DNA of 64,000 bases from Naegleria gruberi (lineage: Eukaryota). Numbering within the stretch: position 1 is the stretch's first letter; each line of letters begins with the position of its first letter. A program made the translations under genes and the position numbers. Below, in pieces: positions 18,293 through 23,417 of this stretch. The notes under the pieces were generated by a model, which was not told the DNA's origin, made no database searches, and worked only from the letters and a program-made list of their open reading frames with translations. The stretch lies in NCBI GenBank assembly GCA_000004985.1, contig GG738874.1, one strand, 5' to 3'.

Positions 18293-18800
18293 CCTAAATT
18301 ATGTATTCGTCTATACGTATATTATTTGAAATCCAATAAACACAATCCTATCGAGGAGATTTAGTATCGATAGTAGATGCACAACTAGTCAAACACTCTG
18401 CTCTCTGAAAAGAAAGATGCTTTTAGAAATTGGAGAAAACCACTCGAGTGGATAAGAGAATGGATTTTTTTTGCTTGTTGTTCAACGACCAGTCATAACG
18501 TTGTTATCAAGGGCGCGGATAACATGATGGAACCAATAAAGTCACTTTGAAAGAATAGTGGATAATATGGTGGTACCACCATCAGCTGATCATCATCTTT
18601 TCCTTTACCAAATTTGTTTCGAATTTGTATGCTGAATAATTATCTACTCGAATTGGTTGAAGTGGATATTAATAAAATTAGAATTGTCATTGTAAAATTC
18701 TCGCGGATGATGATATCATTCATTGTTAAATCTTTCCGTAGGGTACCATGATCACCGTTATCAAATAATTATTTCATCATCAGTAATTTTTATAATTTTT

Positions 18801-19105
18801 TTATTGTTGTTGGTTTTGCATCACGAGAGAAATTTCCTTTTGGGCATCAAAGAATTTATCAACACATGAATCAATACACTTCTTTTCATAGTCATCCAAA
18901 TCCTTTCCGTAAGCAGTCAAACACTTTTTATTGCAGACTGTGAGCATACTATTTTGATAAAATGGAAAAATAATCATCACAACAAGTGTGATTTGCACAT
19001 TAAATAAAATCATCAATATTTAGATACATACTTGAAGTAGAGAGTTCGGAAAGCTTCCAATTCAACCATAGACACTTGTCCACCCATTGGGTTCATTTGA
19101 TTCAT
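18801..19105 (-). CDS. Small Tim (Tim9/10-type) mitochondrial intermembrane-space chaperone; exons 19105..19032 and 18948..18801
   Basis: Exon 1 reads 'MNQMNPMGGQVSMVELEAFRTLYF' and ends at a GTATGT donor. Exon 2 carries the twin CX3C motif 'CNKKC...CIDSC' characteristic of small Tim proteins. Confidence 0.65.
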
Positions 19106-19263
19106 TTTTTTATTTAAATTAATTTTTATATAAAATTTCAATCAATTTGAGAAGAAAAGTCACAAAGCAGAAAAGTGTCATGTTGATTAGAATTGCAAGT
19201 CAATTTGATTAGTGGCCTGCTTAATGGTCTTATGATTTGAAAAATTTAATGTGAACTAGTTTA

Positions 19264-21153
19264 TTAAACAATTTCAACAGTTCCCATGTTGAATCCACAG
19301 TCCCCATTTCTTCCTCCTTGCGTACCAACAGATACAATGACGAAATCTAATCTAATTTTGGTTCCATTCAAAGTTCCCTTATAAGTGGCAACTCTACCAT
19401 CTTCCCACTTTGCAGTGACATCCATGAAATTGTTCAAGAAGGTTCCAGAGTATGTCTTGGCATATGATTGTCCAGCATTCTTATTCTTTCCTGAAACATT
19501 ACCAAATTCTACAAAATTCAATATAAATTTCTTAGAGCTAAAACTTACTATCAACATTGAAAGTCATCTTCCAACCATCTACTTCAGAATTCTATAAACC
19601 TTATTAGTTTTGAATAATCCTTAAAAAACTTACACATGATGAGCCATTCCATTTAGTCCAAAATGTTTTACCACTGATATTGAAAGACTTGGTTTCTGAT
19701 GGACTGCTACTAGTTTCAAATAATGTTCCAGTATTAAATCCACAATCTCCAACATGACCACCTTGAGTACCAACAGCAGTAATGGTAAAATCAAGTCTGA
19801 CCTTATTTCCAGTGACAGTTCCTTTATATGTGGCTGTTCTACCATCATCCCATCTAGCAGTAACATCCATGATATTATTTCTAAAAGTTCCACTATAATG
19901 CTTTCTGATGGAATTTTTACTATCATTCTTATTACTTCCAGAAACATTTCCGTTTGCTTAATATGTGTAAGTCCGAATAAAGATGAAAATAACCTACCAT
20001 CAACTTCAAATACCATTTCCCAACCCTCTACAGCAGAATTACAACCTAAAAGATGTAAATTAGAAATATAAATCTTAATACTTACCAGCCCCATTCCAAC
20101 GAGTCCAATTTGTAATTCCGTCCTTTCCACCTCCAATTCTGTAAAACTTATTCTTTTGTTGAATTGGTTGTACCATAGGTTGAACCATTGGTTGAACTAC
20201 AGGTTGTACTATTGGTTGTTGTTGATATACAGGTGGTTGTTGATACATTGGTTGTTGCATTTGGGGTTGCATTTGTTGTTGATATGGTGGTTGTTGACCA
20301 TATGGAGGTTGCATTGGATAAGAAGGTGCAGTAGGTTGTCCAAAAGGTTGATAAGGATTAAAGTTTTGTTGAGGAACAGTTGGTTGTTGTGGAAACATTG
20401 GTTGATTGGTAGTTGGATAAATTGGTTGATACATTGGTGGCTGTTGTTGCATTGGTTGTTGTTGTCCAGTTCTTCTAAAACAATCACCATTAGGCAATTG
20501 CCATGTATTAATATCCATAGTTTCAACCTTAAGAATTTGTTCACTTCCTTGATTTTGGAAAACCAAATACAATACAAATACATTTCTATTGTTATCACGA
20601 ACAGTGTAGGTATCACAAATTCTTCCATCGGTTTGATTTTTCAAAACAAAATGTCCTCCTTCATGCATAGTACATTTCCAAACCTTTAATTTATACAAAA
20701 TGTATAAAACAACAATTATTTCAAATACCTACCTTTCCAGAATTTTCGGTAAAATCAGCTCCGATCAAAGGAGGAACATCTTGAATAACAGTTGAAGCTG
20801 GTTGAGACAATCCAGTTGAATAATTCATAGAATGAATTCTAGTAAAGGTCTCATTAGTTGCTACTAATTGTGACCCATCAACTGAAGGAACAAACTTCAT
20901 ATTGGCATGTCCATCAAATCTTTGTAAATTAATATATAAATTTTAAAATTGTCATCAAACTATGAAACACCTACGTTGCAAATAAGACCCATTGTAATCC
21001 CCCGTTCAATGGCACAGCTATACCAGTAGCATTTCTATTAGTACCATCTTGAACCCATTGGAAGGTATTACCGAATTGTGTGGCTCTCCAAATTCTTCCT
21101 GATCTTTCAATCCACTCACCATCTAGTCTTGGTGCAACATTACCCATTTTCAA
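19264..21153 (-). CDS. Multi-exon protein with repeated beta-rich (lectin-like) modules and a Pro/Gln-rich linker (at least 6 exons)
   Basis: The gene starts 'MGNVAPRLDGEWIERSGRIW...'. Exons are joined by GTAGGT/GTAAGT donors. The ~50-aa module '...MDVTA(R/K)W(D/E)DGR(T/V)ATYKGT..G.K(V/I)RLDF.I..VGTQGG..GDCGFN(T/M)GT' is repeated, as is 'W.(K/R)WNG(A/S)'. Exon 20075..20698 encodes a P/Q/M/Y-rich linker 'QQQPPMYQPIYPTTNQPMFPQQ...VQPMVQPMVQPIQQ'. Confidence 0.45.
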
Positions 21154-21401: not shown

Positions 21402-23417
21402 TTAAACTTGTTCGATTGGAATGGCCACCGATACTCTTGGTGAGATATCATCTTGTAGTGCCTCTTCCTTAGTGATGTTTTCAATTCCATCATCTTCTGA
21501 TATATTGTTGGCGGCAATGATTTGTTGATTTGGATCCATGTTTTGGAATTTGAGATGATCCTCAGAGAGTGACTTGGCAATTTGTCTTTCAACTTCATTA
21601 AATAAATCATCTGGGAGAATATCAAAGTATTGGTATTCTTCTAATTGATTGTTGAAAGAGTCAATCTCTTTGACTAGTAGTTCAACATCTGAAACTGACA
21701 CCCTGGAGAGAATAGTTCTAATTTCAGTGTATGGTTCGAGAAATTGGGACCAGATTTCAAAGACAAGATTTTGCTTCTCCTTTTCAATCTTTTTAAGCTT
21801 CTTCTCACTTTTACGAATACTGTGGATCTCAGTTTCTGAGGGTTGATTTTTGATAGAGTCCCTATTCTTTTCTAAAGTCAAGTATTGTTTTGATTTTTCA
21901 AACAAGTCAACTTGTACCTGTACGGATTGAGAGGAAACTTCCTTATATTCACTGACCAAATCAAGGAATAAGAAACTCACTTCCAATTCTGAGGAGTTGG
22001 AGCAATATTGTTTAAATCTTTGCTTTTGGGTTGGATCTTTCAATGTGTCGAGAACCATCGCTGCATTCACTTGTTGTAACTTTTTCTGGTTCTGCTGTGA
22101 GGTCTTTAAACTGATACCAAATATTATGATCACTAAGGGTATGACAATTAAAATGGAGAGACCTAGAAGTGCCAAAGAGGTTACGTTACTGTAAAAACCA
22201 ATGTCTGTCGCATAGATACTTTCATTGAATAACCTATCAAGGAAATCTCTAAACAAAACGCCGTCAGCCATCTCTGCATTCACAAAGTCTGACGAATTCA
22301 TATAGAATTGAGCTACCAATTGATTAGTCACAGATGGAAGTTGTTGCTGATCATTCTTAGTTCCATTCTTTGGTCCTCCTCCACCTCCTGGTGGCTTAGT
22401 ACCACCTCCACCTCCTCCACCTGGAGGTTTAGTACCTCCTTGATTTCTGTCTCCATCTCTGTGAGTTTCGTTTGTGAACTTATTTCCCCAGTCCATGTTT
22501 GTTCCATTGAATGTTAAATTCATGGTCAATTCCCAGACTCTCAAAACATCTAAACTATAAATTGAATTGGGATCTCTTGAACCATTCAGATACATGTACT
22601 CTGTTTCAATGGATGGAATGTTATTCAAAATATTGGTCAATGAATTGGTGAATGATGTTTTGCCATTCCTGAACAATTCTAATGGATACTTGGCTTGTAC
22701 AGAACCTCTATTAAAAGCACCTAATCTCACAGCTGTCTTCATATCATTGTAGGAAGATATGGCTGTAGCTCTATTTGTTAGCAACTGAGCGACTGGAACT
22801 TGGCTCACATAAAAATATTGAAGAATGGTAACTGCTGCAATAGCCATCAACACCACAATATTCAAAACTAAAGCCATCACTGATAACAACGAAACTAATC
22901 CAAACTTGACATCTCTATATCTGGTTGGCAAACAAAAACAGCAGCAAAACACTGAAAACTTGGTACTCTCAATCTTATTAAGAAACTTGCCAAACAATAC
23001 TAGAGTTCCAAACAAGATAATTGCAAGAAAGGATGGTTCTTGGGAGTTGTGATTTGAATCAGTACCTTGACTGCAAGTCTCATTAGCAATGTCCTTCTCA
23101 TTGATTTCCTTCGCTCCTGTTCTACCTTTTCTCTTGAGTGAGTCAATGAATGGAGTTGGTTTCATTGTATTTCCATACATGATTTCATCAATGGCCACAA
23201 CACTGTCATCATTATCATCCATTGAATCGAGAGAACAATCTGTGTTTTGGGAGGAATCTTCAGCAGTGATTGAATTTTCTCTACCTCGCATGCAATGTTT
23301 TGGATCAAGATATTCATTGTTTTGATTGACCTCAGTTGTATTTGTGAGTTGTGGAGCTGAAATGTCATTAGTCCTTTCAACACTAGGTGTTGACTCGGCA
23401 ACACTGTCAGTAATCAT
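21402..23417 (-). CDS. Multi-pass membrane protein with a C-terminal RGS-like domain
   Basis: Hydrophobic helices occur at about residues 120-200 and about 420-445. The extracellular region has N-glycosylation sites and a Gly-rich 'GGTKPPGGGGGGGTKPPGGGGGP' stretch. The cytoplasmic 'QRFKQYCSNSSELEVSFLFLDLVSEYKEV...NLVFEIWSQFLEPYTEIRTILSRV' fits the RGS fold consensus (F..F..SE.SEEN..FW..V..YK ... IY..FL). Confidence 0.5.
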   Translation of the reverse strand: MITDSVAESTPSVERTNDISAPQLTNTTEVNQNNEYLDPKHCMRGRENSITAEDSSQNTDCSLDSMDDNDDSVVAIDEIMYGNTMKPTPFIDSLKRKGRTGAKEINEKDIANETCSQGTDSNHNSQEPSFLAIILFGTLVLFGKFLNKIESTKFSVFCCCFCLPTRYRDVKFGLVSLLSVMALVLNIVVLMAIAAVTILQYFYVSQVPVAQLLTNRATAISSYNDMKTAVRLGAFNRGSVQAKYPLELFRNGKTSFTNSLTNILNNIPSIETEYMYLNGSRDPNSIYSLDVLRVWELTMNLTFNGTNMDWGNKFTNETHRDGDRNQGGTKPPGGGGGGGTKPPGGGGGPKNGTKNDQQQLPSVTNQLVAQFYMNSSDFVNAEMADGVLFRDFLDRLFNESIYATDIGFYSNVTSLALLGLSILIVIPLVIIIFGISLKTSQQNQKKLQQVNAAMVLDTLKDPTQKQRFKQYCSNSSELEVSFLFLDLVSEYKEVSSQSVQVQVDLFEKSKQYLTLEKNRDSIKNQPSETEIHSIRKSEKKLKKIEKEKQNLVFEIWSQFLEPYTEIRTILSRVSVSDVELLVKEIDSFNNQLEEYQYFDILPDDLFNEVERQIAKSLSEDHLKFQNMDPNQQIIAANNISEDDGIENITKEEALQDDISPRVSVAIPIEQV

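Follow-up and report, generated by a model that had tools for sequence, protein, structure and literature searches.

The window analysed here, a 64,000-nucleotide (nt) stretch of Naegleria gruberi DNA (contig GG738874.1 of assembly GCA_000004985.1), carries on its minus strand a seven-exon gene for a protein of 538 amino acids (aa). The protein is composed of four small all-beta barrels, laid out as an N-terminal pair (N1-N2), a Q/P-rich linker and a C-terminal pair (C1-C2), and the two pairs are unrelated. The best explanation of our results is that this is one gene encoding four barrels, that the C-terminal domain, termed the C-module, is a portable recognition domain and that the protein is a cytosolic multivalent adaptor or scaffold. 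Taken as a whole, we regard this explanation as fairly probable. An initial annotation of the sequence had proposed a mosaic gene, and our results supported this view: the locus is a single multi-exon, multi-domain gene in which an all-beta module is duplicated and a low-complexity Q/P linker is present. The object is of an ordinary kind: a multidomain cytosolic protein in which common small barrels have been multiplied by tandem duplication.

The region is AT-rich (GC ~34%), and the open reading frame (ORF) listing of the window contains minus-strand pieces chained through 19264..21153. Splicing the minus strand at canonical GT..AG sites produced the following gene model, with an uninterrupted coding frame of 1617 nt.

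19264..21147, minus strand: whole gene, 7 exons and 6 GT..AG introns of 40-55 nt
20975..21147, minus strand: exon 1, aa 1-58, ending in phase 2
20733..20919, minus strand: exon 2, aa 58-120
20086..20683, minus strand: exon 3, aa 121-319, 598 nt
20046..20085, minus strand: intron 3, 40 nt, phase 1
19998..20045, minus strand: exon 4, a 48-nt micro-exon within C-module 1, (G)CNSAVEGWEMVFEVD
19634..19956, minus strand: exon 5, aa 336-443, the remainder of C-module 1, the spacer SSSPS and the beginning of C-module 2
19549..19591, minus strand: exon 6, a 43-nt micro-exon within C-module 2, NSEVDGWKMTFNVD
19264..19508, minus strand: exon 7, the remainder of C-module 2 and the stop codon
19266..19264, minus strand: stop codon TAA

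The gene had been drawn as reaching 21153. Translation actually starts from the ATG at 21147; at 21153 there is a TTG, which is merely where the ORF lister opens the frame. Exon boundaries had also been described as in phase, but the phases of introns 1 to 6 are 2, 0, 1, 1, 0 and 1, and introns cut inside the modules. Exon 3 is a single continuous ORF (207 aa, 20075..20698) that takes in N-barrel 2 and the entire Q/P linker and reaches ~26 aa into C-module 1; the linker is hence a tract inside this exon and not an exon of its own, as had been suggested.

Comparison with other Naegleria supported the model. A 4.3-kb contig from another Naegleria (L001; ERR1598038_888 from Logan run ERR1598038) covers the whole gene at 81% DNA identity, with exons 86-94% identical and introns 60-65%. 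GT..AG is kept at all retained introns, exon indels preserve the frame, and L001 has an uninterrupted ORF of 534 aa; even the micro-exon 4 is 93.8% identical. Intron 3 is exactly missing from L001 (~3590), which reads in frame there as WNGAGCNSS and has the five other introns, and this in-frame join confirms the splice junction to the nucleotide. Intron 3 is also a presence/absence difference between two close Naegleria lineages, and in Naegleria lovaniensis a phase-0 intron lies at a distance of 2 nt. Between the window and L001 the overall ratio of nonsynonymous to synonymous substitution (dN/dS, Nei-Gojobori) was 0.085, with 0.09 in the N-terminal region, 0.04 and 0.06 in the C-modules and 0.19 in the linker. 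On these ratios, both barrel families are under purifying selection.

A N. lovaniensis protein of 494 aa (P0001), annotated as a single protein, matched the product at 54% identity and 99% coverage and shares its architecture. Its gene (L002 6001..7941) has an intron of the same position and phase as that following exon 1 and is followed downstream by a Tim10-family gene and then a glycerophosphodiester phosphodiesterase (GDPD) gene, matching the order in the window. This shared neighbour order identifies P0001 as the syntenic ortholog.

The domains and the linker occupy the following positions.

20823..21147, minus strand: N-barrel 1, aa ~1-90, span including intron 1
20465..20780, minus strand: N-barrel 2, aa ~105-193, span including intron 2
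20165..20464, minus strand: Q/P/M/Y-rich linker, aa 194-293, ~100 aa, inside exon 3
19721..20164, minus strand: C-module 1, a meander beta-barrel, aa 294-414, span including introns 3 and 4
19267..19705, minus strand: C-module 2, aa 420-538, span including introns 5 and 6

The two C-modules align over 106 aa with 66% identity (E 1e-54), and C-module 2 does not have the GGGKD insert of C-module 1. The repeat had been reported as two near-identical modules. Both quoted peptides do lie in minus-strand ORFs (19604..19870 and 19264..19557), so the repeat itself is real, but the 48-aa stretches agree at only 35 positions (73%). The reported W.(K/R)WNG motif was found once per module, as WTRWNG and WTKWNG, within the hairpin at the module's N-terminus. 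The linker had been thought to separate the repeated modules. They are instead adjacent, with a 5-aa spacer (SSSPS), and the linker divides them from the N-terminal barrel pair.

Each C-module holds two introns at equivalent places, and none lies at either module boundary. The first falls directly before NS.V.GW and differs between the modules by a 2-nt offset, being phase 1 in C-module 1 but phase 0 in C-module 2; the second falls directly after VD and is in phase 1 in both. When P0001 was threaded through its locus, the same two intra-module sites (phase 0 and phase 1) and equivalent micro-exons were found in both modules. Since both modules carry copies of these introns, and N. lovaniensis conserves them, the simplest reading of these sequences is that C1 and C2 arose by tandem duplication of a genomic segment already carrying two introns. 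Exon shuffling or duplication had been offered as the origin of the repeat; duplication stands, whilst shuffling was not supported, as no introns occur at the linker/module 1 or module 1/module 2 boundary and introns lie within the modules.

In a distance tree of modules, window module 1 grouped with module 1 of P0002, a N. gruberi paralog of the gene, and window module 2 with module 2 of P0002. The module duplication is therefore older than the split between the two genes. A single-module Willaertia protein branched outside. In N. lovaniensis the two modules share 83% identity, compared with 62% for the window pair, and cluster together, which suggests homogenisation (gene conversion) or independent re-duplication in that species. 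N. lovaniensis module 2 also has one extra intron (LTS|WTRW).

The first 193 aa, overlooked in the initial annotation, form a diverged tandem barrel pair. In hhalign, N1 and N2 matched each other with 97.8% probability (E 5.5e-12, 24% identity over 82 columns) and the structure model of N-barrel 2 has 8 strands at aa 113-192; N1 and N2 are an old, diverged tandem duplicate pair. The hhalign comparison of the C-module with the N-barrels found no relation, so the four barrels are not one family by sequence. The N1/N2 and C1/C2 pairs thus record two independent duplications of different age. The N-barrel family (~85 aa) was found only in Heterolobosea among the sequences searched. A PDB match of the N-domain to TRIM21 PRY/SPRY (E 0.6) was dismissed as not significant.

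The N-terminal double barrel behaves as a mobile unit, as seen in P0004-P0007 from Willaertia magna and in P0008-P0010. Naegleria fowleri and Willaertia have free-standing copies of ~180 aa, and other copies are joined through Q/P linkers to a DUF4476 (PF14771) region or to short Cys-rich hydrophobic C-terminal tails (e.g. CCAVAICCAACQCLMC) that resemble palmitoylation sites or tail anchors.

We then consider the C-module family. A HMMER search with a profile of seven modules against 1.84 billion representatives recovered 71 representative proteins within the E <= 0.001 threshold, of which 27 reached E <= 1e-10, from Discoba, Amoebozoa and environmental sequences. A word-indexed search with a deep module profile gave only 10 fragments and added little taxonomy. 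Pfam searches of the whole protein, each of its parts and all 33 module sequences returned nothing above cutoff and no recurring family, searches of the PDB by sequence with the 538-aa protein and both domain profiles gave no significant match, and NCBIfam and PADLOC searches of the protein had no match. The C-module is thus an undescribed protist domain family without a Pfam entry. The view that the module belongs to no well-known named family held in these searches, whereas the two folds put forward for it did not: jacalin-like (PF01419, a beta-prism I fold) and H-type lectin (PF09458, a six-stranded sandwich) were both excluded, having no profile match and a different fold.

Structure prediction of one module, proposed as a check in the initial annotation, gave a confident answer. 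The AlphaFold2 model, built from a 33-sequence alignment, had a predicted local distance difference test score (pLDDT) of 96.6, a predicted template modelling score (pTM) of 0.87, ten beta strands by DSSP and no helix. As modelled, the C-module is a closed up-and-down beta-barrel of the avidin/calycin type. Comparison with solved structures gave figures of 10-12 for designed and outer-membrane mini-barrels, 10.0 for Cap15 and 9-10 for many avidins (up to 19% identity), with YceI, lipocalin-like proteins and Gid4/Gid10 lower. With Foldseek, the top PDB matches were nearly all bacterial avidins (rhizavidin, wilavidin, agroavidin, hoefavidin and bradavidin), at E 0.015-0.1 and TM-scores (template modelling scores) of ~0.45-0.59. 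The best PDB sequence match of the module profile was also rhizavidin (E 0.12), through a common (V/I)D..GNVSG stretch. The most conserved module residues are GW, GNVSGxNKN, KxYSGT, one Tyr and two Gly, and by alignment these would lie near the region corresponding to the avidin beta3-beta4 loop.

Several other known barrels resemble the C-module in outline. It has no sequence relation to the calycin-type barrels (lipocalins, fatty-acid-binding proteins, nitrobindin/THAP4-like proteins and YceI) and has neither the lipocalin C-terminal helix nor the helix-turn-helix lid of fatty-acid-binding proteins, DSSP assigning no helix. The likeness to Cap15, the cyclic-dinucleotide receptor of CBASS (cyclic oligonucleotide-based antiphage signalling system; PDB 7n34), is at the level of fold only and PADLOC gave no match; unlike the window protein, which lacks transmembrane segments, Cap15 comes from bacteria and is joined to transmembrane helices. 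Gid4/Gid10, substrate receptors of GID/CTLH E3 ligases, are similar only at the level of a generic barrel, and the window protein lacks an E3 domain.

The company kept by the C-module in other protists suggests its role. RING and zf-TRAF domains precede it in P0020 (N. gruberi EFC50141) and P0025, and it stands at the C-terminus of RING, TRAF-zinc-finger and coiled-coil proteins as well as behind F-boxes and C2 domains. The F-box partner was above the Pfam cutoff in P0043 and weakly detected in four further relatives; C2 was found in P0022 and in P0030 from Stygamoeba, and GNAT in P0063 from Pelomyxa. Stand-alone C-module proteins of ~120 aa occur in N. fowleri, Willaertia and Ploeotia, and Amoeba proteus has a family member (P0038). 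P0043, a 173-aa F-box and C-module protein, is encoded at L003 10001..10522 on a 176-kb contig of JGI metagenome 3300045996, whose sparse called genes include ATG8, GATase, a beta-lactamase-fold protein and DUF5766. P0014 (995 aa, ENA/Logan) and its cluster members have a Q-rich N-terminus, four diverged C-modules and a long Ala/Glu-rich, coiled-coil-like tail, indicating that the module can form longer arrays.

In canonical TRAFs, the recognition (MATH) domain lies C-terminal to the RING, the TRAF zinc fingers and the coiled coil, and in SCF ligases the domain behind the F-box is the substrate receptor. The C-module occupies both of these positions, and we therefore infer that it may be a portable recognition domain, with avidin/calycin-like barrel geometry. 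The equivalence to MATH is one of position, MATH being a beta-sandwich and not a barrel. Within the 538-aa protein we found no catalytic or E3 domain, and no signal peptide or transmembrane segment (maximum KD19 1.13, N-terminus not hydrophobic), which points to a cytosolic adaptor. Two recognition barrels (C1 and C2) would be tethered via the flexible linker to the second barrel pair (N1 and N2). Ligand may be bound at the open end of the C-module barrel, around GW...GNVSGxNKN...KxYSGT, with peptide, lipid, nucleotide or vitamin as candidate classes, and the protein would act as a cytosolic multivalent adaptor or scaffold.

Several points weigh against this proposal. The role is deduced from the module's place in domain architectures, which is suggestive only, and the GNAT and C2 partners do not imply recognition of proteins specifically. 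The link to avidins is statistically unestablished in the Foldseek and profile comparisons above and in Pfam, where Avidin (PF01382) matched 1 of the 33 module sequences, below cutoff at E 0.03 (P0065 scored E 0.066). No paper on the C-module family, its members or accessions was found in the library searched, nor one that treats avidin-like domains in either Naegleria or E3 ligases.

A more ambitious version of the adaptor proposal would make the C-module family a remote intracellular offshoot of avidin-like barrels, repeatedly recruited as the specificity domain of TRAF-like RING ligases and F-box proteins, with the window protein a non-catalytic multivalent adaptor or a competitor for the same ligand. 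We consider this rather unlikely as a whole, although conceivable, and avidin homology of the C-module is at present a lead and not a result.

The C-modules might instead be carbohydrate-binding lectin domains and the protein a bivalent lectin. The module is all-beta, repeated and of lectin-like size, tandem repeats are common in lectins, and some closed barrels and calycin-like domains bind sugars. We give this only a small chance.

It is similarly improbable that the Q/P tract is the functional core, prion-like or condensate-forming, with the barrels as its clients or valency elements. The tract had been put at 200 aa in 20156..20460; its Q/P/M/Y-rich character was borne out, whereas that span of 305 nt corresponds to ~100 aa. 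Its composition is 33% Q, 27% P, 9% M, 8% Y and 7% V (Q+N 36%) with zero charged residues, and a low-complexity linker is present at this position, between the N-barrel and C-module pairs, in all orthologs and several paralogs. These features, including the scattered Y and M, would suit a functional tract, but a proline content of 27% speaks against a prion domain of the amyloid type. Neither sequence, length nor even composition is conserved, the tract being P/T/Y/V-rich in Willaertia and short in P0002. It is also the least constrained part of the protein, with the highest dN/dS and several in-frame indels relative to L001, whilst the barrels are far more constrained. The linker contains two PPxY motifs, both conserved in L001:

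aa 202, in the linker: PPMY
aa 270, in the linker: PPVY

Their number is not above chance (P = 0.10). PPxY recurs in proline-rich linkers directly upstream of the C-module in P0020 (aa 241), P0025 (aa 384), P0057 (aa 90) and P0003 (aa 210), a weak lead that might point to WW-domain docking.

That the C-module is a true, very diverged avidin, with biotin or a similar vitamin or cofactor as its intracellular ligand, appears very improbable. In its favour, the model contains the eight-stranded up-and-down beta-barrel of avidin/streptavidin (PF01382; rhizavidin PDB 3ew1/3ew2). Avidins however have eight strands, compared with ten DSSP strands in the C-module model, which includes an extra N-terminal hairpin, and no sequence or profile score of the module was significant. 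Streptavidin contacts biotin through N23, S27, Y43, S45, W79, W92, W108 and D128. In the rhizavidin alignment (E 0.12), which is of low confidence and too weak to be conclusive, the Tyr position (Y43) is the conserved Asn of SNKN and the Ser27 equivalent is an invariant Trp. Known avidins are moreover secreted homo-oligomers, whereas the window protein is cytosolic, multidomain and tandemly repeated.

Least credible of all is that the ORF pieces belong to several small genes or to a pseudogene in decay: no product of the locus is found in the searched annotated N. gruberi protein set, but exon 3 alone physically links N-barrel 2, the linker and the start of C-module 1, exons 4 and 6 (48 and 43 nt) are too small to stand alone, L001 fuses exons 3 and 4 in frame, dN/dS is low with every indel in frame, and the ortholog is annotated as a single protein. 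The conservation in L001, the dN/dS values and the syntenic N. lovaniensis ortholog effectively exclude separate genes, as judged from these sequence comparisons.

The 538-aa product is absent from a collection of 15 billion proteins, and in a homology search with it no N. gruberi protein came close to 100% identity; the annotated protein set thus appears to lack the gene. The single-exon ORFs on either side match N. gruberi EFC43372 (the GDPD) and EFC43374 exactly, which identifies the window as N. gruberi DNA. With both neighbours annotated, the missing product is probably an annotation gap in the reference. Two neighbouring genes were placed as follows.

~18800..19110, minus strand: small intron-containing gene, between the four-barrel gene and the GDPD gene
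21402..23417, minus strand: EFC43374, a 671-aa predicted protein

The small gene, with ORF pieces MNQMNPMGGQVSMVELEAFRTLYFK... and ...CIDSCVDKFFDAQKE, resembles a small Tim (Tim9/Tim10) protein, and the syntenic N. lovaniensis neighbour of the four-barrel gene has PF02953 (zf-Tim10_DDP). EFC43374 has a glycine/proline repeat (GGTKPPGGGGGGGTKPPGGGGGP) and hydrophobic stretches; its ortholog in L001 has no Pfam match on record.

Nothing known is overturned by these results, as the fold is common and the function is deduced. They do show that a conserved 538-aa gene under selection is missing from the searched N. gruberi reference protein set, and they add two domain families with confident structure models and no Pfam entry, the ~85-aa N-barrel and the wider ~120-aa C-module. 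With the C-module at the substrate-receptor position of TRAF-like and F-box proteins in protists, the family opens a testable route to the specificity of ubiquitin ligases in little-studied eukaryotes, among them relatives of the pathogen N. fowleri, in which a stand-alone copy occurs. If the avidin relationship were true, the fold family would extend to intracellular, multidomain eukaryotic proteins.
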